Shown here in pieces: positions 4,478-56,293 of a stretch of DNA of 64,000 nucleotides. Positions within the stretch are counted from its first letter, which is position 1; every line of letters begins with the position of its first letter. This DNA is from Heterostelium pallidum (lineage: Eukaryota). Location: positions 684,435-748,434 of the forward strand of contig NW_008805072.1 in the NCBI RefSeq assembly GCF_000004825.1. Reading direction: 5' to 3'. The notes under the pieces were generated by a model. That model was not told the origin of the DNA. It did no database searches and saw nothing but the letters and a program-made list of their open reading frames with translations. The position numbers and the translations under genes are program-made.

Positions 4478-4884
4478 ATTTGCTATGTGTGTGATGAAGT
4501 GTAGGGAGAAGATAACAAATATATCAGTCGATTGATCTATACAAAGACAGTTTCACACTCTATACATACATTATAGGGAGGAATCCGGAAAAGGGTGAGT
4601 ACGAGGTATCAGATAAGTTTCTTCACAGTGGTGGTAGTCAGGCAGCTTGCACCACACCTCAGGTACAGTCGATTCTCGTGCCAAAAAAAAAATTAAATTG
4701 AATTTTATTATTTATTTTTCAAAAATTTCATCGTAGTTCGTAATTTACAAGAGTCTCAACAAATTTTGCATTCAATAAAGTCGTTGAATGACTGATTGAT
4801 TAATCATACGAAATTAATAATAATAATAATTTAAATACTACCAATTGTTGTTAATTATAAATATATTATATTAAGAATCAATCA

Positions 4885-7128: not shown

Positions 7129-8097
7129 GTTTTTATATAATTATTTAGAAAGATTGAAATGAAAGAAAGAGAAGTGTATGATAAAAGGTGAGAATTTAAT
7201 TAAAAGATTTAATATAAATGTGTGTAGTCGACCTCTAAATAATAAATAGAAGTAGTTTTCAATTTTAAATCAAGCAGTAACAAAAAATATAGATATAGAT
7301 AAAATATGTTTTACTATTATTTAACAACTTAATATAGATAATAATAAGATTTTATATTTACAAACAATAACACAACAATAATAACAAGTTGTTTACTCAA
7401 AAGAAAAAAAATAAATAAAAGATCTTTAATTATTTGTTAACAAGTATCTTTGATTAAAAAAAAATTAAAAAATAAAAAAGTAAAAAAAAGAAAGACAGAT
7501 GTCTTTGTTAATTTATTAGTTATATATATTTAAAAATTATGTTCTCTAAAAATAGAATAGAGAAAATAATAGAAAATATATAAAAGAAATAAATAGTGTA
7601 TATAAATTGAATATATTATAGTTTGTTAGGTTAAATAATTAACTAACAACTGGTCGAATAATAGGTAGAGATAACAAAAACTATAGTTATAGTATATGTT
7701 AATGGTAGTTGGATTTTTGGTGAAATGAATTGAAAAAAGGAGAGAGAACGTGCGTGGGTGACCTGTTGAGTATTTATATTTTTGAGAAAAAATAAAAAAT
7801 AATTAAAAAATAAATATTGAAAATCGAAATAAAATTAAAAACAATTGTTTGTTTTTACAACCGTTGATGGTGAAAAAATTAAATATTCAAATTTTTACAA
7901 TTTGGAAGTTCACACCTCAATATCAATACAAATAAGCTTAAAAGAGATCTGTTTAAAGTTGTAGTTATACAATGTCACCTATTTAATGTTATTTTGAATA
8001 AGAATTGTTGTTTTGTTTTTCAAAAGTTGTGTAAATTATTATTATTATTGTCGTCGTTATCATATTGTTTGTATTGAGTTGTTAGTTCTTTCTTGAT

Positions 8098-10673: not shown

Positions 10674-11567
10674 TCTGTATTACTATGTTATTATTACTAT
10701 TAAAATTTGATGTATATATATAAAGAGGTGAATCTAATGTTTTGATTTTAATTAATATTTTAATTAACTAACTGGTCTAACGGTTTTTTTTTTTTTAAAA
10801 GATTAATTTTTTTGATATTAAATTCCGACAGTTGAATTAATAACTTTACTTTACTTGAAAAATGATTATTATTTTGTATTATATATTTAGTATTTATACA
10901 AGATGATTAAAGAGTAAAATTGGTTTGTTTGAGTCGTGTTCTACTTTTGGTTATTGCAATGTCAGTCTTTTTAATTATTAAATTAAAAAAAAAAAACACA
11001 GCATTCCCGATTTTCTAGAAATGTTGTGGAGTATTGTTTTTTTTTCAGTGCTATTTGTTTGTTTTGGTCCAAAAATAATACAGACTTTAAATAATTCAGG
11101 TTAATTAATTCTTTGAGATATTTTTATAACTTAAATTAATTTTTATTTCTAAATTGTTTATTAACTAAAAAAAATATTATTTACATTTATTTTTAAAATT
11201 TTTTATCATAGTAAAGAATTTAATAATGATTCTCTCTCATTGTTATAATTTTTTAAATAAATAATTATGTCCAATCCCAATATTGTTTTAATACAATAAA
11301 AAATATAATAAAAGATTGATCTATTTTTTAAAAATACAAAAAAAAAAAAAAAAAAAAAAAAAAGTTTTTTTTGAGAAACCAAAATTGCATTAAAGAAAAA
11401 AAAAATAAGAGAGATAAATAAATAGATAACAAAAGAAAATAGAATAATATTAATAGATCGAATAATTTTATATTATAAAATAAATAGTAAAAGATATATA
11501 TAGAATAATAGTCATATTATTATTTGTTGAGCTATTTTTTTTAATAAATTTTTATATTTTTTCAAAA

Positions 11568-12968
11568 ATGAAAATCAGACTCCATAATTATATCAATAGT
11601 TTAGATTTCAATAGTTATCAAAAAGAATATGAAAGACAAAAGAATGATACAACACCATTCGAAATACCACCAGATGACTTGTTTTCATCGCAATCTCTAA
11701 ATTTAAAAGATAAATTGTCGTCGTCGAAAAGAGACAAACCTCAACTGCAGAGTCAGAGTTCGGCAAAGGATTTGCTATCGATGTCCGGTGCATCGTCGGC
11801 CAATTCATCGTATCCGTCGACACCCAACAGTAAGGAGCGATCTCCTTTCACCACACCCAACCTAAAAAGCAGTAATGCAACGACATCGCCAACTGTCAAT
11901 GGCTTGCCTTGGAATCAAGAGTTGCTTTCGATGCCACTGCAAGCACCTCCACCCGCCAGACGTGGACCTGGTCGTCCAAAGAAAGAGTATCTCGAGCAAC
12001 AACGACTCTATGACGAGCAACAAGCAATGATTGCACACATTAAAGCTAGTCCAATCATGCATGAATCATTGAAAATGTCTATTCCTGCGCTTGCTGCCAT
12101 CTCCTCTGGCTCAAGAGAAGACGGTCAAAGTCAACACTCACCACCTTCAAAGAAACCATCGCCAAGAAAGAAGAAATACGATGACGATGACGATGACGAA
12201 GAGGATGACGACGACGACGATGACGAGGAAGACGATGTCGATGAAGAGAGAGAAGATGGCGAGGACGAAGGTGAATCCGGAAAAGAAGAAGACGACGATA
12301 TCGATGAGGATGGTGAGAGTGGTGACGATAGCGGTGAAGAAGATGGATCAACCAAGCCAACACCGCCAGCAAAGAAAAGAAGAGGTAGACCACCTAGAGT
12401 CTACAGGGTTAAGAGAGTACACCAAGACGGTAGTGAATCGGATTCAGAGGAGGATTCAGAGGAATATGATAACGAGTCGGAGGATGACGATGATTTCGAT
12501 AGTGATGAAGATAAATCAAAGAAATCAAATAACAACAACAATAATAAGAGAAAGCGTGAAATACCAAAGAGTGTTGCGACATCTGTGAATTCGGCGCCAA
12601 AGAGTCAACCACCAATACCGGCAACAGCACCTTCAAAGTCACCTGCAATGACACCGACTCCACCAATCACTACAACTACCACTACAAGAAGAGCGGCAGC
12701 AGCAGCAGCAGCGGCAGCAGCAACAGGTACCACCACACCAGCCGTCACACCACAGAAAGAGACAGCGGTCACCCCAAATAACAAACAACAAAACAACTCA
12801 AAAGAAACACCAAACAAAAAAGAAACAAACAATGAAAAGACAGAAGTAGTTGAAGAAGATTCAACTATGAATTCACCCGATAAACAAGATGTTACTGTAA
12901 TTGAAAAGAGAAAAGTTGGTAGACCACGTAAATATCCAAGACCAAATGAAGAAACACCAACTAAATAA
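11568..12968 (+). CDS. AT-hook motif nuclear protein with long acidic D/E tracts; single exon
   Basis: Three AT-hooks (RRGPGRPKK, KRRGRPPR, KVGRPRKYPRP) and several poly-D/E stretches. AAAAUGA start context and TAA stop. The ORF is continuous with no in-frame splice signals needed. Confidence 0.7.
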   Translation: MKIRLHNYINSLDFNSYQKEYERQKNDTTPFEIPPDDLFSSQSLNLKDKLSSSKRDKPQLQSQSSAKDLLSMSGASSANSSYPSTPNSKERSPFTTPNLKSSNATTSPTVNGLPWNQELLSMPLQAPPPARRGPGRPKKEYLEQQRLYDEQQAMIAHIKASPIMHESLKMSIPALAAISSGSREDGQSQHSPPSKKPSPRKKKYDDDDDDEEDDDDDDDEEDDVDEEREDGEDEGESGKEEDDDIDEDGESGDDSGEEDGSTKPTPPAKKRRGRPPRVYRVKRVHQDGSESDSEEDSEEYDNESEDDDDFDSDEDKSKKSNNNNNNKRKREIPKSVATSVNSAPKSQPPIPATAPSKSPAMTPTPPITTTTTTRRAAAAAAAAAATGTTTPAVTPQKETAVTPNNKQQNNSKETPNKKETNNEKTEVVEEDSTMNSPDKQDVTVIEKRKVGRPRKYPRPNEETPTK

Positions 12969-28342: not shown

Positions 28343-29627
28343 TGAATTTACAATATTTTCAATGACCTGTGTTCTTTGTTGTTGGTTTTTTTTGACATTT
28401 CTTTTTTTTTTTTTTTTAATAATTTATTTTTTTAATATCTGATTATTATATTTTTGAAAAAGAAAGAAAATGTCAACCTTTTGTAACCTGTTCTTTATCT
28501 ATCTATCTATATTCTACAAATCTTTTAAATATTTAACTAATTAGATTTTGTCAATCTAAATCTTTGAATTTTATATATTTATATACTCTTAAAAAAAAAT
28601 GTAAAATACAACAAAGTTCTTTTTTGTGTTGATTGTGTGCTAAAATATAAATAGATATCTTGATGTATTGTTATATATATATAGAAGGTATTACAAAATA
28701 TTAAACTACAATAAATAATTTTGTACAACAATGAATATTATTTATATATAATTGTCAATACTATCTATGTAATATTATTATATTGTGTTGGTAGTATTAA
28801 CAATCTGAATGTAAACTGCAAGTGGACTTTGATTTTTTTTTTTTTGATTTTTTTTTTTCAAAATTGAAAAATAATAATTAAAAAATTTTTCAAAAGACAA
28901 TTCTGAGCATGCTTAAATTTATATTATTGTCTTGGTATTCTGATCACTCTTTGAAAAAAAAGAAAAAATGATATTTTGACTAGGCTCATGATCAAATAAA
29001 TAAAAAATAGTACTTCTTTTGTTTAATTTTGCAAATATATTCTATCTTTATTTTATTTATTAATAATAATAAAGGTTGTTGTTTTTTTATAACAATGAAG
29101 TAGTTAAGTGAAAACCCAACCAAATAGATTTAGATTTCGACGGCGGTCATAGTGACTAAAAGTCTACTCAGGTAGAGTCGTTTTTCTGACTAACTCTAGA
29201 GTTGATATTTCAGTGTCTCTACTCTTGATTTATGATGAGTTGACTGAATCAGAACATTCTGAAAGTGTTTTATAGATTTTCATTCACAATTCAAAGCTTT
29301 TTCAGTCAAGATTTTCATTAATCTTATTCTTTTGAGTCCATTTGAATAACTTTTTGATGACAATTCTATGTTTTTCAAACAATTGGGTGTTAGATAAACT
29401 TTATATCAAATATTGATATCATGCAAAAACTTACTTGGAGCTCTTTGAACATCGTATGAAATCATTGTGTCATTAATATTATAATCAAACATTTTAATAG
29501 AGTGTAAATTAAATTAATATGATTTTCGAAAATAACAAAGCTAAATATTTATTTATTTGTCTGTGATAATTACCAATGCTTAGGTTATCAAGTATTTATA
29601 GAAGACATCCTTTGAGAAAGTAATCAA

Positions 29628-29738
29628 TTTGTCAATCGTGTAATTGTCAATCATATAATATTTGTTTATTACCTTGCAAATTTTCAATCATGAATTTGTC
29701 AATCGTTGATTTTTTTTTTTTGTTGACAAATTTGTCAA
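29628..29738. promoter_or_regulatory. Cluster of three direct TTGTCAATC(G) motifs plus the 16-bp perfect palindrome ttgacaaatttgtcaa, in the MROH1-like / MVP divergent intergenic region
   Basis: tttgtcaatcg at 29628-29638, attgtcaatc at 29643-29652, tttgtcaatcg at 29695-29705, and the palindrome at 29723-29738 flanked by T13 and A9 runs. Confidence 0.6.
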
Positions 29739-30675
29739 AAAAAAAAGTCGATATTTTTCGAATCGGATTCAAAGCCCAAAAATAACACAATAGATGATAA
29801 ATCTTTATTTATTAAATATATATGTAAATGAAAAAATTGTTTTATTTGATCTAAATTTTGTTTATCAAAGTAATTACCTAACCTAAACATTAAACTAATA
29901 AATAAAAATAAACTTTGTAAATTTTGTTGATTATGAACACACCTCAATGAAAATAAGAAAAAAATGAAAAAGATGATAAACTTTATAACTAATAATCTTT
30001 GTGTGTGAAATATTAAAATTGTTTTTATTTATTTATTTTTGTCTATTCTCAAAGTAATTACTTAGATCAATAACAATTTTACAAAAAATCAAATATATTA
30101 AATTAAACAATAACAAGAAAAATGATTAATTTGATCCAAATCATTAATATTATAAAAAAATTAAAAAAAAAATCAAAAAAAGTTAAGATATTAAAAAAAA
30201 ATGATAATAATAAAAAAACAAAATTCAATAATTTTCAAAAAAAATTAATAAAAAAAAGTTTGAAAGGGTTGAAGTTGGTCTTTGTGAGAAAAAAAGCTCA
30301 TTGTGCCCCTGTTTTTAGTGAGTTTTTTAATTCAAAAATATCAAAGGAGAAAATTCCAAGAATGTTGAAATTTTTAAATATCAAAATTTATTTGGAATTT
30401 TTGTCAAACAAAAGCTAATGTCAATCTTTATTTAAATTTAAAAGCTCAGTTGAAACTCCATCATCAACAACTTATTAAATCATCTATCAATCAACAACTT
30501 ATTGTTTATATCTATTCTATTCCAATTAATATATACAATTATTATTTCTTAACACAAATAATAATAATATATTAAATTTTTTTAAACAACTACTTTTTCC
30601 TCTCAACATCTAAATCTCTGTTTGTAATCTTATATCTATTTTCTTTACTTTTCTTTTAAATAACATATATATAAA

Positions 30676-33327
30676 ATGGCCACTCCATCTACAGTCATTA
30701 GAATCAAGCCACACCAATACATTCATGTAAGTAATAATTAATTAATATGATAAAGTTAAAGTTGTATAAAAAAAAAATTATTAATCTTTTATTATTTTTT
30801 TATCTTTTTTCTTCTTTTTTTTTTTTACTATTAATAATAGGTATTGGATAATAATACAAATGTAACTCGTGTTGAAGTTGGTCCACAAACATTCACTAGA
30901 TTGGATCATGAAAAAGTATTGACTGCTACCCCATTGCCAATGATTTTGATCCCACCAAGAAACTATTGCATTGTAGAGAATCCAATTATTAAAGATAAGG
31001 ATGGTAAATTGGTGATTGACCAATTCCAACAACCAAAGTTGCGTCACGGTGATCAAGAGATCCGTTTCGCCCAAGATCCATTCCCATTATACCCAGGTGA
31101 AATCTTGGCTGCCGCACCAGTCCCACTCAACGTTGTTCAAGCCAACAATGCTTTGCGTTTGAGATGTCTTCGTGACTTTGTTGATATTGTCGATAAGAAG
31201 GAAGTTGTTCGTGTCGCTGGTGACGAATGGTTGTTCGAAGGTCCAGGTACCTACTACCCACGTGTTGAAGTACAAGTTTTGGAGGGTGTCAAGGCTATCA
31301 TCATCAAGGAGAATCAAGCCTTGAAGTTGAAGGCTCGTCTTACCACCAAGGATCGTAAGGGTGTTCTCCGTCAAGTCAACGAAGAATGGTTGATCCGTGA
31401 TTCTGGTGCCTACTTACCAGGTGTAAATGAAGAGATCGTCGGTTTCGTCCAAGCCCTCGTTTTGACCGACCGTATCGGTTACCACTTGGTCGCCTTGCGT
31501 TCATTCAAGGATATCTTTGGAAAGTTGAGAAAGGCCGGTGAGGAATGGATCATCACCTTGAAGGACTGTGACACTTATATCCCAGATGTCAACGAGAAGG
31601 TCCTCCGTGACGTCAAGGCCATCACCTTGACCAACCGTCAATACTGTATCGTCGATTCTCCAGTCGACCCAGCCACCGGAAAGAACTTGCTCGGTCACCA
31701 AGATCTCCGTAAGGGTGAACGTACTTTCTTCTTGTTGCCAGGTGAATCATTGGTCAAGGGAATTCAAAACGTCAACGTCTTGTCAGAAGATGAGGCTTTG
31801 TTGCTCTCTTCCACCGAATCCTTCCAAGACAAGACCGGAAAGGAGGTCGTCAACCGTAAGCCAGGTGATTTGTGGATGATCTACGGTCCATGTGACTACA
31901 TCCCACCAATTCAAGTCGATATTGTCGAGCGTCGTAAGCGTATTCCACTCGACGTCAACGAGGGTATCTACGTTCGTGACACCAAGACCGGTAAGGTTCG
32001 TTCTGTCATCGGTTCCTCATACATGTTGCTCCCTAACGAGGAGAGATGGGCCAAGCCATTGACCCCAATCGTTGAGGAACTCCTCTCAAAGTCTGCCACA
32101 CGTGACGTCAACGAGGAGCACAACGAAGTCGACCGTGACTCCACCAAGGTTGTCACCTACCGTGTTCCACACAAGGCTGCCGTTCAAATCTACGATTACC
32201 GTAAGAAGGAAGCCCGTGTTGTCTTTGGTCCAGAGTTAGTCATGTTGGCCCCAGACGAAGAATTCACCGTTCTTTCATTGTCTGGTAAGATTCCAAAGCG
32301 TCCAAATCACATTCGTTCACTCGCCCTCTTCTTGGGTCCAGATTTCATGACTGACTTGATCACCGTCGAAACCGCCGACCATGCTCGTCTCTCATTGAAG
32401 TTGTCCTACAACTGGGAGTTCCAAATCGACAGCGCCAACCCATCCAAGTTGTTTGCCACTGCTGATTTCACTGGTGATTTGTGTAAGGCCACCGGTTCAT
32501 TGGTAAGAGCTGCCGTCGCCTCCTCCACTTTCGACAACTTCCACAAGCACTCTTCAGATATCATCCAAACTGCCGTCTTTGGTAAGGATGAGGAAGGTAA
32601 GCCAAACAACCGTTTGGTCTTTGAAACCAACGGTTTGGTCATCACAAACATTGACGTTCAATCTGTCGAGCCAGTCGACCAACGTACTTTGGACTCCTTG
32701 CAAAAGTCTGTCCAATTGGCTATCGAAATTACCACCAAGTCACAAGAAGCCACTGCTCGTCAAGAAGCTGAACGTTTGGAGCAAATGGCTCGTGGTGAAT
32801 TAGATCGTCAAAAGATTCTCGACGAAGCTGAGGCTGAGAAGTCTCGTGCCAACTTGGTTAAGTTGCAAGCCGAGTCAGCATCCGTTGAATCCACTGGTCA
32901 AGCTATTGCCGAGGCTCGTGCTCGTGCTGAAGCCGCTTTGATTGCCACCGAATCTGAGGTCAAGAAGACCAAGTTGGAGTGTCAAGCTCAAGAAATCGAA
33001 GCCTGTGCTGAGCTCGAAGAGGAAGTTGCCAAGCACGAAGTCGAAATCGAACACACCAAGCTTTTGAACGAATTGGAAGTCTCCAAGGCTCAACAATTGG
33101 CCGATATCGAAGTCTCCAAATTCTCCAACCAAGTCACTGCTCTTGGTACCGACACCATCAAATCCATCGCCCAAGCTGGTCCAGAGATGCAAGCCAAATT
33201 GCTCCAAGGTTTGGGTCTCAAGTCCGTCTTGCTCACCGACGGTTCCTCCCCAATCAATCTTTTCAACACTGCTGCAGGTTTAATCGGTGGTCCACAAACC
33301 GGAAACGTTGAATCATTCGACGAATAA
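30676..33327 (+). CDS. mvp: Major vault protein (MVP); CDS join(30676..30726,30841..33327)
   Basis: The N-terminus [17 protein letters not shown]|[18 protein letters not shown] matches human MVP [35 protein letters not shown]. It is collinear through the MVP repeats, the shoulder domain and the C-terminal coiled-coil cap helix ([18 protein letters not shown]). Codon usage is GGT/CCA/ACC-biased, which is typical of highly expressed genes. The single intron is 114 nt, from GTAAGT to AATAG. Confidence 0.93.
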
Positions 33328-36936: not shown

Positions 36937-37922
36937 TGCTATTACCTATTGATGTTTTACCTCAGCCTATGAATAAACATGTACTACTAAACTATCAATA
37001 TCGACCATCAATTAATTACAAATATATATGATTATTATTATTATTAGCTAATTTAAACTATTATGATAGATATTATATAATAATATATGATAATAATCAA
37101 TGAATTTTAAAGAATAATATATCAATAAAGGTGTGTGGGTGTGAACATAAATATCATTTCATAATAATTTTACCAAAAGTTTGTTGATTTTTTTTTTTTC
37201 ATTTTTTTTTTAATTATTTATGATTATGCACCTTTTCCATCATCGACCTTACCAAACTTCTTCTTTGTTTTTGAAGTTTCAAATAAAATAACAAAACATA
37301 TAAAAAGATCACAATTAATAATTGTTCTATTTAGAAATATTTTTTTCATTTTTATTATTGTAACTTGAAATTATTTAAAAAATTAAATCTTGTATATACT
37401 CAATAAAATTGAAAATTAAAACAAATGAACAAATCAATTAATCCTCCAATCAGATCAGTTCTTTTTTTAAACCAAATCATTTTTAAACAAAATAATAACT
37501 TACGTACGATTAACAAAAAAGTTATTATTATTATTGAAATTAATAATGCAAAAGAAATTTATTTAACTTGATTGTCAATCAAAAACAAAACTAAATAGAT
37601 TTATATTATTGGGGTGATTTCAATCCCAAAAATGAGATTGATTGAAAAGGATATAAAAAGTAAGTTTGCTTTTTACTATTTTCGTTTTTCTTATTTACGG
37701 TGATTTTAATTGGTCTGATCTGTGAATGATTTTTTGTAAATAGCCTTGTTTCATCCCTCATTTACTGATCCCTCATTTGAACAAATCAATTTCAATCCGT
37801 TAATGATTTTCTATCTGTAGAATGAAAACTATAAATAAATTAAACTTTCTTTACGAATCATTATTAAATTATTTTCTTTACTTCATTATCAACAAATAAA
37901 CAAACGAAGAAATTCATTTAAA

Positions 37923-44316: not shown

Positions 44317-46095
44317 ATGAAATTATCACAAATTAATTGTACAGTTCATACTGATGAACCATTTATTTTATTTTGTAAAAAATGTAATACTTTGGTTTGT
44401 TCAGAGTGTATGTGTAGTACTCATCAACAACACACCACAATCTCTATAAAAACACATTTACAAGAGAGAAAAGAATCTATCGATACCACAACAAAGAAGC
44501 TAGCGGTATTCGATAATCTAAAGTGGTTCGCTGAGCAACATGCTCATGTCACTGAGAATGAATCGAAATCACTGTTGATTTTCGATGAACTCACCAAGTT
44601 GATCAATAACTACAAGTTCAAATACGAAACCAATATCAAAAGACAAAAGAATCTCCTCGAAGACTACGCCAAAGTCCAATACTCCTACTTGGAGCAACTG
44701 AATCAAGTTTCACTGTCTGCCACCACCAACGAAGTCAATTCAGAAACAGCTAAAGTGTCCATCGGTGACATCCACACTCTATCGAAATCGTTACAACAGA
44801 ATATTGAAATATCCAAGTTTGTTTTGGATATTAGAAATTCCGCTATGTTGGAGGAGCTTCTCGTTGCCACTGCCATCAAAGGATACAAACCATCGATATC
44901 TCTCACCATCGAACAAATGCTCGCCATTGTCGAGTCAATCGATCCAAGCTCACCACCATTCAGTAAAGCCTACGATGTAAATTGTGAAACCACAGTAGAT
45001 GTATCATCCGATTACATTAGCCAATTCTCCAACTTATTAAAAGAGTCGGTAAAGTTAAAATCCGATAACTTTATTTCTCCACATTCTTCATCTACTTCCA
45101 TTTTATCAGAGGTTTTAGCTCCCGATAGAATCGCCGCTAAACCACTTACTAAACTCTATTGTGTACAAGCAAATAAGATTGTCGGTTCCGGTGCAGGCAA
45201 TCCAAGATCAATAGCAGTTATAGACCTGGAGGTGAACAAGATCAATATGGAATGGGCATTTTTCAGTCGCTCCAAAGCCTATAGCTCTGCTCCTATCCTT
45301 TTGAATAACAAGTTCTATACGCTAGGCGGTGATATAATGGAAAAATCTACATTTGAGGTGTATAATATCAATACAAAGTCTTCTACTATCCACAACCTAG
45401 GAAAAGTTGTTGGTTCTAATTTGGCTTGTGATTCCGATGGTCAACGTCATATCTACATAACCAATTCCGATCGTGGAAAGTACGAAGAGTTCATAAGAGA
45501 TTCCTACGATGATCTTGACAGTAGTTACCACACTGGCCACAAAGTTATCAGTGGAACCGAAGCCGATTTAACCATTGAACGATTAGATGTTGTAACCGGT
45601 GAATTCAAGGTGGTTGGAAATTTAAAGGAGAAATCGGGTCTGATCTATACGCATTTGATTTACTCTGCCAAGTACAATTCACTGATAATCTTCAACAATA
45701 AGAAAATCCACAAACTCGATCTCTCAAAGTCATCGTTGGGCTACCAAAATGTTTCAGTCGAAATTGGTTCAACTTTGGCGATCTACGAAAGTGCCAAGCT
45801 TAGTTTAGTCTACGATGGAGACGATAAGATCTATTTCAATTCGATTGGAGATCGTAATTTCTGTGTTCTCAATATCAGTGATAACAGTCTCACCGCACTA
45901 CCACAGCACTCCGAGGCAATTCGAGCACTTGCCTACGATAAGTACACCAACCAGATTATCATAGCGATATCCTATAGACAACCACACAAGCTTGGATACT
46001 ACAACTGCAATACCAACAAGGTAGAAGTATCCAATCGTCAATTAGAAATACCATCAAATATATTCTTTCATTCATTGATTGTAGCTGAAAAATAG
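44317..46095 (+). CDS. B-box zinc finger plus coiled-coil plus C-terminal Kelch/NHL-like beta-propeller protein (TRIM-like, no RING); single exon
   Basis: N-terminal B-box CTVHTDEPFILFCKKCNTLVCSECMCSTHQQH, then about 150 aa of heptad-rich sequence. The C-terminal half has repeated hydrophobic-blade motifs (FYTLGGD, IYITNSD, LIIFNN, KIYFNSIGD). Confidence 0.75.
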   Translation: MKLSQINCTVHTDEPFILFCKKCNTLVCSECMCSTHQQHTTISIKTHLQERKESIDTTTKKLAVFDNLKWFAEQHAHVTENESKSLLIFDELTKLINNYKFKYETNIKRQKNLLEDYAKVQYSYLEQLNQVSLSATTNEVNSETAKVSIGDIHTLSKSLQQNIEISKFVLDIRNSAMLEELLVATAIKGYKPSISLTIEQMLAIVESIDPSSPPFSKAYDVNCETTVDVSSDYISQFSNLLKESVKLKSDNFISPHSSSTSILSEVLAPDRIAAKPLTKLYCVQANKIVGSGAGNPRSIAVIDLEVNKINMEWAFFSRSKAYSSAPILLNNKFYTLGGDIMEKSTFEVYNINTKSSTIHNLGKVVGSNLACDSDGQRHIYITNSDRGKYEEFIRDSYDDLDSSYHTGHKVISGTEADLTIERLDVVTGEFKVVGNLKEKSGLIYTHLIYSAKYNSLIIFNNKKIHKLDLSKSSLGYQNVSVEIGSTLAIYESAKLSLVYDGDDKIYFNSIGDRNFCVLNISDNSLTALPQHSEAIRALAYDKYTNQIIIAISYRQPHKLGYYNCNTNKVEVSNRQLEIPSNIFFHSLIVAEK

Positions 46096-51706: not shown

Positions 51707-54240
51707 TTATAAATTTTTTAATAAATGATTGATTCTAAATGCTTCTATTGATACTCTATTGTTGATATCTCTAATACCATGTCTCTCTTTACAGAGCATT
51801 TTTAGTATATATGGTTTACCATTAGTTTGTAACTCCTCAACCAATAGCAAAGTATTAGCAAAATGTACATTTTCATCTTGTATACCATGAATTAAAACCA
51901 ATCTATCCAATCTAAAAATATATAGTGTGTTGGTTAATTGTTGATTATCAAAGTTTGATAGTTGATATATAATTAATTGATTATAACTTACTGATCTGGG
52001 AAATTATTTAGATAACTAAGTACGTTACCTAATTTGTAACCCTCAGGATTGTTCTTTGGTGTATTCATGTAACGTTCGGTGTATCCAGTGTTGTAGGTCT
52101 CCCAGAGAGTGACAGGTGCACCAGAGATTGCAACCTTGAAAAAGTCTGGACGTTGAGCAATACCCATCAGTGCAAGATAACCACCGTAGCTCCATCCTTG
52201 AATGGCGACTCTTTCCAAGTCGAGTGAGATTTGATTTCTAGCGAGATACTCAATGCCCTCGACTTGATCCTGAATCTCAATTGTACCCATACGTTCACGT
52301 AGATGACCTTCAAACTCCAGTCCACGATTGGTCGATCCGGTTCCATCGATGTAGATAGAGATGAAACCAAACTCTGAGAGGAACTGTCTGGCCAGACTGT
52401 ATGAGTTATTGACTATCTGGACGTGTGGACCGCCATAGACACAGCAGACGCTTGGATAGAGCGTGGCGGGGTTGTAGTCAGCAGGCAAATAGTAGCATCC
52501 ATAGATCTTACGACCCTTGGAATTGACAAAGCTAAAGAGAGTCGGTGTTCTCGGTTTGAGAGCAATCGATTTCTCAACGTTGATGGTTGTGATCAGAGTT
52601 GGACATGGGAAGTGGTCGTCGCCTCTAAACTCGAGCTGATAGACTTGACTGAGTGGGGCGTCTTTGACCGACGAGTAGTTGCTGACGAAGCGAGTAAAGT
52701 TTGGTGATAGCTGGATCGATGTGTGATGATGTCCCTGGTTGGTGAGACGTCTGATATCACAGGGTTTCGAGTTGGCAGCATACGAGCAGACATAGAGATG
52801 GTTCTCAAGCGGCGAGTCTGCACTCGCCTCAAAGTAGATGAGAAGACGCGATTGGTCGATCCAGAGTTTCTCGCCGACAACCCAGCTGCCCTCAGTTAGT
52901 TGACGTGTCTTTACGTTGGTGTAGTTCGACTCCCAGCTGACGAGATAGAGATGACGGAATCCAGAGGATTCATTCGACCAAATCAGATTGTTGCCATCGA
53001 GGAATGTGATGTGGTCGACGACATTCACCCACAGATTGGAACGGTCACTCAACAACACTGGCAAATCCGAAGGTGTTTCGCTGAATTGAGACAGCGGAAT
53101 CATCACCAAATCCAAACGTTGTTGCAATCTATCCATCAACTGAACCCAAACACTCTTTCCATCCTTTGACCATCCACCACGAACATAATATTCCAGCCAT
53201 TCAAACTTACTTTTCAAATCAAACAAATAATTTTGTTTACATTCCAATTCATTCTTTAACATGTAATAATAATAATAATAATAATATTAGTATAAATCAA
53301 CTACTATTTACAAAAATAACAACAATTATACTTACAGATTCATTAAAGGTAAGAGTTAATAGACATAGACGAACTTTGGTATTTTCGTCACCTGCCAATG
53401 GATATTTGTAATGAGTGGTAGTTCCAGTGTATCCATGTTGTGAGATATAGAAATCACGGACATGACGCTCATCTTCCTCAAAGTAGAATATTTGATATTG
53501 GTTGGGTGCAGCAGAGGTTGGTGACCACCAATATCCAGTGTATCTGGAGAACTCTTCACTGTACACGAATTTCGATTCACCGGCAGAGACAAACTCTGAT
53601 ATTTTACGGGTATGTGTAAGACGATGACGTTGTCCACTTGCTAGATGAGTCACCCAGATATCACCTTCCTCAATGAATGCGACCAGTTTGGCATCGTGTG
53701 AGAGTTTCGGGTCGAACGAACCACAATTTAGCTTCTCAAGCGCCGGTGAATGAACTCCAGCACTACCACCGATATCGACAATATACAAATCATTACTCAT
53801 TGCAGCCAAAAAATGTTTGGTATTCTCATTAAAGTCATAGGAGGTGATACCATTACCAATGATTCTCTGTCTTTCTCTCATCAATTCCTCTTCGATTGAC
53901 ATCTCTTTATTTGATTCTCTATATGCAAATAGTGGTTTAATATCTTTGAATACCAATAATAATAATAATAATAATTTAGTTAGTTAGTTAGTTAAAATAT
54001 TATTATAAATCTATAGATGATGTTACCAGATAGTTTTTGATTGTTTTCAATGTTGATATAGTGAATACTCAACATTGATTGACTTTGAGTGTTTGTAAGA
54101 AAGAATAGATGATTGTCATTGTCAAATTGATACTTTGATGGTGAAAATGAGTACTCTTCCATTGCCAATAGCTTTATGATATCATCTTTTGTATAACCCT
54201 TGTTATTGTGCTGAATCATAATCTTATTTCCAGCAGTCAT
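51707..54240 (-). CDS. Dipeptidyl peptidase 8/9-like serine peptidase (S9B family); CDS join(54027..54240,53336..53943,51992..53253,51707..51911)
   Basis: Catalytic GWSYGGY nucleophile elbow, then LIHGIQDENVHF. Collinear with DPP8/9, for example YPLAGDENTKV ~ YPKAGTPNPKV; RHLYLVSWES; CCVYGGPHVQIVNNSY ~ LFIYGGPQVQLVNNRF. Three introns of 80-83 nt with GTAACA, GTAAGT and GTAAGT donors. Confidence 0.88.
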
Positions 54241-54450
54241 TCTTTTTGTTTATTCTTTAAATAAAATACAAATATACAATAAATATTACAAAATAATAAT
54301 ATGATACTGTATTAATAAAAGTGATCACATTAATCATTTAATTTAATTTATTTTAAAGTTTTTTTTTTTAAAAAAGTTTAATTTATATTTTAGATTGAAC
54401 TTCAAGAAAGTAGCCAACACAAAATAAAAAAAAGTTGCACTAAAAAAGTT

Positions 54451-54547
54451 GATTGACATGACTTAATATAGATAATTGTCGAATCGATTTGTTTTTTTTT
54501 TATTTCTTTTTCGATTCGACAATTATCTATATTAAGTCATGTCAATC
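54451..54547. repeat. Perfect hairpin palindrome with 37-bp arms (gattgacatgacttaatatagataattgtcgaatcga) around a 23-nt T-rich spacer, in the divergent DPP-like / ankyrin-gene promoter
   Basis: Right arm 54511-54547, tcgattcgacaattatctatattaagtcatgtcaatc, is the exact reverse complement of left arm 54451-54487 (checked base by base). Confidence 0.9.
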
Positions 54548-54607
54548 AACCTTTTTTATAATTGATTCTATAATTATCTATATATATAGATAAAATAAAC
54601 AACTAAA

Positions 54608-56293
54608 ATGGATAACAAACTATTTTCTAGTCTATTTAAAAATGTTGTTATAAATAAATTGATATTTGACAATGTTAAATCGATTAATAGATTGAGAGGA
54701 GAAGGAAATGTTTACAAATGGAGTCAAGTAATTCAATTGCCACACGTTCAAGCAGGTAACAACTATCTACATTTGTTAAAAGAGAGTTTACAAATGAATT
54801 TTGGTGCATTCCAGATCTTCAGAAATGCAGTGCATGCCGGTAGTCTCGAGATGTTTGAATACCTGTTGCAATACTACCGATTTACCACCGCTCAGATATC
54901 ATTAGATAGAGTTTCCACGTTGAAAGAGCAACTTCTCAACTCTATACTCATCAATGCATCTCGTTGCAATCGATTGGATATCATTGAGTGTCTGCTCCGC
55001 ACATTTCCAACTTATCGATGGGATTTCTATGGTGCTATGGTGGATGCTCCATACTCTGGCAACTGGGAGATACTGAAGCGACTGAAGAAGTTACACGAGC
55101 AACATAACAACGACAGTGACTTCTCATATTGCAGTGTATTTGATTCCGCTGCTTCAGTTGGACGACTCGACATGATACAGTGGTTGTTGGTTAATCGTTC
55201 TGAAGATTTCGAGAAAAGCGAAATGTTAATACCAGCAATTGAAGCTGGTCATCTTCCTGTCGTTGAATATATCCTAAGAGAGCATAAAGAGCTGTTGGAT
55301 AAAGAGGACAAAGTGCTCGTGAAAACCGCAGCTGTCAACGGTCATTTGGATGTCCTAAAGTTGTTGTACGAAGAGAAGTTTTCAGTTCCAGATAATATCG
55401 TTGATGATGCAGCACTGAGTGGAAATCTAAAGTTGATCAAGTGGTTACAGGAGAATAAGATTGGCGTTGCTTCTCTTCGGGCGATCCAAAGCGCTGTCAC
55501 CATAGAAGATCTACAAACCTTGGTATGGTTGTATCATAATTCATCTGATGTAGTACATCTAAACATACCATTTATTGTAAAACTGGCAGTTGCTAACAAC
55601 CATTTGAGTGTAGTTAAGTGGTTGCTCGAAAATACAACAACTGAACGACACATCGATAGTGAAACAATAGTGAACGTTGCCAAAGGAAATTATTTCGATA
55701 TGTTTCAATTTTTACTAAAGAATGCACAGGTTCAAATTCCAGATAATCTTTTGGATATCGTGGTGTCGCGAGGTCATTTCAAATTCATCAAATATCTACA
55801 TGAGAATACAACTCTTTCATGTTCTACCAACTCTATGGATTATTCTTGTAGCTACGGTAGACTTGAAATTGTAAAGTTTCTCCATGGGAATAGAAGTGAA
55901 AGTTTCAGCTCTAAAGCAATGGATAATGCTTGTGTCATTGGCTGCCTTGATATCTTGGAGTTTCTACATAAAAATCGAACAGAAGGATGCACAAACGAAG
56001 CATTTCTATTGGCAATGGATAGAGGTGAGTTTAAAACTCTTCGATGGCTCCTGGAAAACCGAACAGAGATCAACATTCAATCGATCCCACTCGAACACTT
56101 CAACATCTACGATCTATTGGTAAATAACTACCATGATTGTCTGGAATTGCTACTCAATCAACGATCAATTCCAATCGATCTGGCAAAACAATACTTGAAG
56201 AGAGCTGTTGATATCTATAAAAATTCTATTGAATCGATTCAAGTTTTAAATCAATATATTGAAAAACATCAGATGTACCAAACTAATAAATAA
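54608..56293 (+). CDS. Ankyrin-repeat protein with degenerate repeats of the form G(H/N)L.V(V/L)K(W/F)L(L/H)EN; single exon
   Basis: A 561-aa ORF with about 12 tandem ~30-aa helical repeats (AAVNGHLDVLKLLYEE, AALSGNLKLIKWLQEN, AVANNHLSVVKWLLEN, SRGHFKFIKYLHEN, ...). Confidence 0.7.
   Translation: MDNKLFSSLFKNVVINKLIFDNVKSINRLRGEGNVYKWSQVIQLPHVQAGNNYLHLLKESLQMNFGAFQIFRNAVHAGSLEMFEYLLQYYRFTTAQISLDRVSTLKEQLLNSILINASRCNRLDIIECLLRTFPTYRWDFYGAMVDAPYSGNWEILKRLKKLHEQHNNDSDFSYCSVFDSAASVGRLDMIQWLLVNRSEDFEKSEMLIPAIEAGHLPVVEYILREHKELLDKEDKVLVKTAAVNGHLDVLKLLYEEKFSVPDNIVDDAALSGNLKLIKWLQENKIGVASLRAIQSAVTIEDLQTLVWLYHNSSDVVHLNIPFIVKLAVANNHLSVVKWLLENTTTERHIDSETIVNVAKGNYFDMFQFLLKNAQVQIPDNLLDIVVSRGHFKFIKYLHENTTLSCSTNSMDYSCSYGRLEIVKFLHGNRSESFSSKAMDNACVIGCLDILEFLHKNRTEGCTNEAFLLAMDRGEFKTLRWLLENRTEINIQSIPLEHFNIYDLLVNNYHDCLELLLNQRSIPIDLAKQYLKRAVDIYKNSIESIQVLNQYIEKHQMYQTNK

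Follow-up and report, generated by a model that had tools for sequence, protein, structure and literature searches.

Gene context of the palindrome

We describe here an almost perfect inverted repeat in a stretch of 64,000 nucleotides (referred to as the window) from the genome of Heterostelium album PN500, formerly Polysphondylium pallidum. The G+C content of the window alternates between about 20% and about 48%, as expected for dictyostelid AT-rich spacers between coding exons, and the inverted repeat is situated in the spacer between two genes:

51988–54240, minus strand: DPP8/9-like serine peptidase gene (DPPIV/S9, Pfam), with its ATG at 54240
54608–56293, plus strand: ankyrin-repeat gene PPL_12316, an uninterrupted 561-aa open reading frame (Pfam)

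The start codons, at 54240 on the minus strand and 54608 on the plus strand, are divergent and have 367 bp between them, a head-to-head arrangement with starts less than 1 kb apart. The initial annotation had put the element between divergent DPP8/9-like and ankyrin genes and about 60 bp upstream of the ankyrin ATG. The Pfam assignments, together with two divergent start codons 367 bp apart, indicate that this gene context is correct, and the distance from 54547 to the ATG at 54608 is 61 bp.

The DPP8/9-like gene has at least three exons (53992–54240, 53297–53956, and 51988–53262), and its product is most similar to DPP8-like proteins from Acytostelium (60% identity) and Cavenderia (52%). No H. 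album protein matched it among 5.8 billion proteins, a collection in which its neighbours PPL_12311 (an exact protein match to the ORF at 44317–46095) and PPL_12316 are both present, and the gene may be absent from the public PN500 annotation. The ankyrin reading frame is identical to annotated PPL_12316 over the first 421 residues and shares its start codon, but the annotated model is 467 aa long; it splices at a GT at about 55871 (region 55871–55983), changes frame there, and ends in a 46-residue tail that lacks repeats. This annotated intron is probably spurious, because the unspliced 561-aa reading frame carries on with ankyrin-type repeats.

Structure of the palindrome and its flank

The palindrome and the DNA between it and the ankyrin gene contain the following parts:

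54441–54447: left outer stem extension, T followed by A6, pairing with 54552–54558 across a bulged C at 54551
54448–54487, plus strand: left arm, exact 40 nt, GTTGATTGACATGACTTAATATAGATAATTGTCGAATCGA
54451–54458, minus strand: TGTCAATC (reading GATTGACA on the plus strand) at the outer end of the left arm, with a mirror copy at 54540–54547 on the plus strand
54466–54475, plus strand: ATATAGATAA box, TATA-like and GATA-like, found also at 54523–54532 (minus), 54574–54583 (minus), and 54584–54593 (plus)
54488–54510, plus strand: loop or spacer of 23 nt, T-rich on the plus strand, TTTGTTTTTTTTTTATTTCTTTT
54511–54550, minus strand: right arm, 40 nt, the exact reverse complement of the left arm
54551–54558: right outer extension, consisting of the bulged C, T6, and A, with the sense-strand T6 (54552–54557) facing the ankyrin gene
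54564–54583, minus strand: third, degenerate copy of the inner-arm 20-mer (18 of 20 positions, two mismatches)
54574–54593: perfect 20-bp mini-palindrome TTATCTATATATATAGATAA, made of two ATATAGATAA boxes, 15 bp upstream of the ankyrin ATG

Exact pairing of the arms extends over 40 nt (54448–54487 and 54511–54550) without a mismatch, and none of 100 shuffled sequences gave any match. The exact 37-bp arms at 54451–54547 of the initial annotation are correct, yet fall 3 bp short on each side. A repeat finder extends the arms to 46 nt at 98% complementarity (54442–54487 and 54511–54556, with 23 nt between them), and a fold that tolerates one bulged C (54551) has pairing across 54441–54558, with a stem of 46–47 bp around the 23-nt T-rich spacer. 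The palindrome is accordingly 103 bp long in its perfect form and 118 bp with one bulge. As single-stranded DNA it folds with an energy of -45.1 kcal/mol (z = -15.6), and as RNA with -70.1 kcal/mol (z = -15.4); no shuffle was as stable in either case. A full scan of the window with loops of up to 60 nt found arms of only 14 nt in the runner-up perfect inverted repeat, and a perfect inverted repeat of 40 nt is expected about 2e-9 times by chance in approximately 33 Mb at the local base composition. The description of the arms as far beyond chance is therefore well founded. The base composition given for the element, about 85% A+T, is not: we measure 75% for the 97-bp element and 70% for its arms, and the higher figure roughly describes the surrounding 367-bp spacer (82.6%). 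With 30% G+C against 17% for the whole intergenic spacer, the arms are its most G+C-rich and most complex part.

No other copy of the palindrome, exact or diverged, was found within the 64-kb window. When the region was compared with the rest of the window by sensitive blastn, the matches consisted of low-complexity AT sequence (58–77% identity) and a few stretches of 19–31 nt (80–95%).

Each arm is laid out as GTT-GATTGACA-TGAC-TTAATATAGATAAT-TGTCGAATC-GA, and is itself a quasi-palindrome, with GATTGACA on the outside, the complement of GATTCGACA on the inside, and the TATA/GATA-like box between them. The 23-nt spacer, T-rich on the plus strand only, is the sole asymmetric part of the palindrome. 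At the outer edges, the A6 at 54442–54447 is a T6 tract on the minus strand that faces the DPP gene, and a further A-rich stretch, AAAATAAAAAAAA, precedes it at 54422–54434. Within 130 bp there are four occurrences of the 10-mer ATATAGATAA, arranged in two inverted pairs, one in the arms and the other in the mini-palindrome. The third copy of the inner-arm 20-mer has the same orientation as the right-arm copy, from which it lies 51 bp downstream; its alignment score was reached by none of 2000 shuffles, and it runs directly into the mini-palindrome TTATCTATATATATAGATAA. Together, this third copy and a mini-palindrome built from the same 10-mer suggest that local copying of a short module took place more than once.

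Recurrence of the arm motifs in the window

We counted the arm motifs in 19.4 kb of the window's AT-rich, presumably non-coding DNA, with the palindrome's mirrored copies included. There TGTCAATC occurs eight times against 0.24 expected (about 30-fold; none of 500 shuffles reaches eight), ATATAGATAA six times against 0.95, and TCGAATCG three times against 0.08, enrichments that derive from one 64-kb window and to which the palindrome and a cluster at 29.6 kb each add non-independent copies. The core GTCAATC had been proposed to link the arms to that cluster; the link holds in the AT-rich non-coding DNA, but across the whole window the excess of TGTCAATC is marginal, with 11 occurrences against 5.0 +/- 2.3 expected and one of 100 shuffles reaching 11. 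The cluster is as follows:

29629–29772, plus strand: related motif cluster upstream of the major-vault-protein gene, with TTGTCAATC three times within 75 bp, plus TCGAATCG

The plus-strand TGTCAATC sites at 28549, 29630, 29645, 29697, and 30419 are all found within the AT-rich spacer of 2.5 kb that precedes the major-vault-protein gene (30844–33327), and a further site, at 37573, is upstream of a Dicty_CTDC-repeat gene. The flanks of the TGTCAATC sites outside the palindrome are unrelated, which is the pattern of a binding-site word rather than of transposon fragments, and we regard TGTCAATC at 28549–30426 as a candidate cis-regulatory word. The cluster also includes a small inverted repeat at 29690–29745, AATTTGTCAA and TTGACAAATT around a T-rich 20-mer with a T12 run, and this arrangement of AATTTGTCAA, T-run, and TTGACAAATT repeats the layout of the palindrome's inner core in miniature. 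We considered and dropped the idea that TGTCAATC always points to the downstream gene, as in a divergent spacer either orientation faces one gene. Presumably GATTGACA resembles both the TTGA-repeat STATa element of D. discoideum and the TGATTGACAG homeodomain site, resemblances that we treat as leads only.

Other occurrences of these words are noted as observations. Two plus-strand ATATAGATAA boxes lie 39 bp apart at 7293 and 7332 (region 7293–7341); the first has ATATAGATAAAATA in common with 54584–54597, and the second has the 15-mer CTTAATATAGATAAT in common with a palindrome arm. At 37566–37580, 350 bp upstream of the Dicty_CTDC-repeat gene (37923), there is a 15-bp palindrome, TTGATTGTCAATCAA, on TGTCAATCAA, the word of the arms' outer ends.

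Comparison with other dictyostelids

Intergenic palindromes of a comparable kind are already on record for a sister genus. A catalogue for D. discoideum AX4 lists 1770 palindromes of at least 19 bp, mostly of 19–80 bp, from non-coding DNA (Drewell et al. 2023, PMC10111430); they form hairpins and disturb bisulfite sequencing, and no function has been assigned to them (PMC10111430). The H. album palindrome belongs to the class so catalogued, a perfect inverted repeat of at least 19 bp in AT-rich non-coding DNA, and the catalogued examples, like the one here, are perfect or near-perfect inverted repeats in such DNA. Most of the catalogued palindromes examined are A/T runs or TA repeats, although complex ones of 60–87 bp exist (PMC10111430), and one entry, at chr5:4652662–4652740, consists of A15, CATATATAGATAAAAATAAATC and its complement, and T15 (PMC10111430 Table S1). 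The plan of this entry is that of the H. album palindrome, namely an A-tract, ATATAGATAA arms, and a T-tract. Relative to the catalogue as a whole, the H. album element is longer (103–118 bp), is more complex (30% G+C in the arms), and comes from another genus.

The initial annotation had suggested a comparison with orthologous promoters, and we made it for the DPP genes of Acytostelium and Cavenderia. For the most part it yielded no correspondence, as the neighbouring genes differ and the spacers cannot be aligned by eye, but one 10-mer is shared with Acytostelium. Synteny of the DPP/ankyrin pair is not kept, with both the upstream and the downstream DPP neighbours differing in all three species. 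The palindrome was not found at the Acytostelium or Cavenderia DPP loci, and the only inverted repeat found at the Acytostelium DPP locus, at 72%, lies inside the gene. The shared 10-mer, TTATCTATAT, is about 255 bp upstream of the Acytostelium subglobosum DPP ATG (4640–4649 of the stretch of DF837574.1), in an orientation relative to the gene that matches the H. album left-arm copy 226–235 bp upstream of the DPP ATG; upstream of the Cavenderia DPP orthologue both the ATATAGATAA box and TTATCTATAT are absent. As support for the arms being native promoter sequence, the Acytostelium match is suggestive only. We also note that a DDE_3 (Tc1/mariner-type) transposase gene is located 4 kb downstream of the Acytostelium DPP orthologue (11204–12247 of the stretch of DF837574.1), which indicates that such DNA transposons exist in group-2 dictyostelids.

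Promoter architecture and possible start sites

In D. discoideum promoters, poly-T on the sense strand ends about 2 bp before the transcription start, and the TATA element is centred about 29 bp upstream (Chang et al. 2012, PMC3371697; also PMC6161686). By these rules, a divergent promoter pair should show an A-tract to its left and a T-tract to its right, and there are two plausible models for how transcription would begin. One model uses the outward-facing TATATTAA sequences (centres at about 54532 and 54466) with the T6 and A6 tracts, and predicts starts at about 54559 for the ankyrin gene and about 54440 for the DPP gene, which are the two outer edges of the palindrome. The other uses the inward-facing TATAGATAA of the left arm with the T-rich spacer, and would place a start at about 54503–54513, such that the right arm alone would be transcribed. 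The two models appear to fit the sequence about equally well.

The resemblance to dictyostelid core promoters lies in the outward A/T tracts towards each gene and in TATA-like boxes about 26–27 bp inside the predicted starts. In contrast to D. discoideum core promoters, the tracts are only T6, and the TATA-like boxes differ from TATAAA(A/T)(A/T) at one or two positions; both the T6 at 54552–54557 and the A6 at 54442–54447 are short, and TATATTAA, about 26–27 bp inside each predicted start, is an imperfect TATA. The poly-T/TATA rule was established in D. discoideum rather than in H. album, and T-tract use in the H. album promoters of this window is less regular than in D. discoideum. A scan for bacterial-type promoters and terminators, which is irrelevant for a eukaryote, gave a promoter-like count not above that of shuffles and was set aside.

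Origin of the palindrome

We propose, tentatively and with somewhat less than even confidence, that native promoter DNA was recently duplicated in inverted orientation at this locus to give the palindrome, which forms a mirror-symmetric module in the shared 367-bp promoter and is neither a mobile element nor an RNA gene. The arm motifs common to other promoters and the degenerate third copy adjoining the palindrome are what lean the evidence towards a native, locally duplicated promoter module. Before the palindrome arose, the module would already have been copied once nearby, and a pre-existing short inverted repeat would be the probable site at which fold-back or template-switch copying of native promoter DNA then created the palindrome at this locus. 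Each arm would represent the same module, comprising the GATTGACA box, the TATA/GATA-like TTAATATAGATAA box, and the GATTCGACA box, with the two copies facing opposite ways and bordered by outward-facing oligo(dT) tracts. Under the first of the start-site models, the palindrome would work in double-stranded form and would itself be untranscribed, serving as a mirror-symmetric module of bidirectional core-promoter elements or transcription-factor sites.

Quasi-palindrome/template-switch and fold-back inverted duplications have been described in E. coli and yeast. As here, they give perfect short inverted repeats with a short spacer, arising from local sequence with a small inverted repeat, and each palindrome arm is itself quasi-palindromic (GATTGACA ... 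TGTCGAATC); unlike in the E. coli and yeast cases, the mechanism at this locus is deduced solely from the end product. We know of no description of a mirror duplication of a whole core promoter. The 40/40 identity of the arms exceeds what transcription-factor sites need, and thus speaks to the youth of the palindrome only and not to its function; any regulatory effect is putative, and the palindrome may be a nearly neutral recent mutation. A stronger form of the proposal, which we consider doubtful and largely speculative, is that a single inverted-duplication step made a complete mirror-symmetric bidirectional core promoter with both start sites exactly at its outer edges, that negative supercoiling from divergent transcription could extrude a cruciform and thereby couple or limit the two genes, and that a second case would be found in the D. 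discoideum palindrome with its A-tract, ATATAGATAA arms, and T-tract.

Several other origins have to be weighed against a local duplication, of which insertion of a MITE or foldback non-autonomous DNA transposon, somewhat unlikely in our assessment, deserves the fullest consideration. The palindrome would then be a MADE1-style element with two long terminal inverted repeats and a short spacer, inserted in the promoter, possibly at a TA. The plan is similar to that of human MADE1 (mir-548 family), which has 37-bp terminal repeats around 6 bp, and, like MADE1 and D. discoideum thug-S, the palindrome is short, non-coding, and a near-total inverted repeat with a short spacer, of a kind that often lies near genes and can give rise to hairpin RNAs from which small RNAs are made; it spans 103–118 bp with arms of 40–47 bp and has no ORF. 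MADE1 and thug-S, however, form families of many copies that show TA target-site duplications and whose parent transposase is known, whereas the palindrome has one visible copy in the 64-kb window, with no diverged copies, an uninformative TA, and no parent element found. The sequence can be read as TA-[54443–54556]-TA (54441–54442 and 54557–54558), as a mariner-type insertion would be, but this TA "duplication" is the self-complementary continuation of the palindrome; being indistinguishable from one more palindrome base pair, it carries no information. Direct repeats of 3, 4, or 8 bp are absent from every palindrome boundary as read from the sequence, and a piggyBac-style reading (TTAA at 54463–54466 and 54532–54535) was rejected since the inverted repeat continues outside the TTAA sites. 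Foreign DNA could also be richer in G+C than the surrounding spacer, as the arms are, and the adjoining 18/20 copy could be the relic of an older insertion, but single arm motifs are found again in other promoters, between unrelated flanks, as would be expected of binding sites rather than of transposon fragments. P. pallidum does have recently active DNA transposons, with Sola2 copies 98% identical (PMC3627910), although the arms are unlike the published Sola2 ends (those of PPa-1/4/5, 5' TGTTAAATTTT... and 3' ...AAATAGTTTCATA, are unrelated to them), and none of the arm 12-mers occurs among the transposon sequences deposited alongside that report (PMC3627910). None of the 23 ORFs of at least 200 aa in the window has a transposase domain, and a tRNA scan found no tRNA gene in the window that could attract a retroelement. 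Nothing related emerged either when 20–22-mers from the arms and a gapped pattern of the inner core were scanned against metagenome, viral, and prokaryote collections: the viral and prokaryote collections gave no matches to the arm sub-sequences, and the five metagenome matches are all unrelated hairpins, on contigs of 14–72% G+C.

A nearly neutral fold-back mutation would share the local origin of the preferred duplication but be functionally inert, having arisen recently and not yet decayed or been deleted; we consider this unlikely. The perfect 40/40 arms indicate youth, and their identity is explicable without selection, neither the gene order nor the element is conserved in Acytostelium or Cavenderia, and the 1770 palindromes of at least 19 bp catalogued in D. 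discoideum likewise have no assigned function (PMC10111430). Against inertness, the motifs are non-randomly common to other promoters, the older copy retains 18/20 identity where rapid evolution of the DNA would be expected, and the palindrome sits where the core-promoter elements of both genes are expected, so that it is unlikely to be wholly without effect. It is very unlikely, we believe, that the palindrome is instead a hairpin-RNA gene, transcribed across both arms as an siRNA or miRNA precursor, even though its RNA hairpin is extremely stable (-70.1 kcal/mol, z = -15.4) and dictyostelid miRNAs come from intergenic hairpins and the thug-S repeat (PMC6161686, PMC4894637). The hairpin does match plant and animal miRNA-precursor models of Rfam weakly, but at 20–29 bits the scores are far below the gathering scores of 73–83 bits (the best, MIR1507, has 29.2 against 73), nowhere in the window is the gathering score of an Rfam family attained, and such sub-threshold scores reflect a generic hairpin shape only. 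A perfect 47-bp stem is moreover unlike curated pre-miRNAs, and as the palindrome takes up the space separating the two divergent start regions, its own promoter would have little room. Were the palindrome part of the ankyrin 5' UTR, it would put a hairpin 50 nt ahead of the AUG, where such a structure would be expected to block ribosome scanning. Finally, perfect palindromes can stem from chimeric clones or reads, but an assembly or cloning artefact is extremely improbable here; the element is deep inside a 1.64-Mb contig, it is short with a 23-nt spacer that is asymmetric, and the independent diverged copy of the 20-mer nearby is not something that an artefact would produce. Nothing we observed speaks to the replication or recombination hotspot that the initial annotation had also suggested.

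Implications

If the palindrome did arise by local duplication, it would be a clear-cut natural case of mirror-image copying of promoter DNA, with the same control module handed to two back-to-back genes, and would illustrate one route to bidirectional promoters and new regulatory wiring in very compact genomes. If it is a MITE, it becomes a matter of routine repeat annotation. The analysis also flags TGTCAATC and ATATAGATAA as candidate regulatory words in Heterostelium. Either way, the site could give false methylation calls in bisulfite data, as the D. discoideum palindromes did (PMC10111430), and we suspect that the palindrome may hinder sequencing.

A minor observation concerns one of the metagenome contigs that matched the inner-core pattern, JAABUW010002535.1 (27.6 kb, 14% G+C). 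At 2453–2583 it carries repeated TCGAATCGA / TTTCGAATCGATTTC units and the hairpin AATTGTCGAATCGA...TCGATTCGACAATT, and its match to the pattern is probably due to chance.
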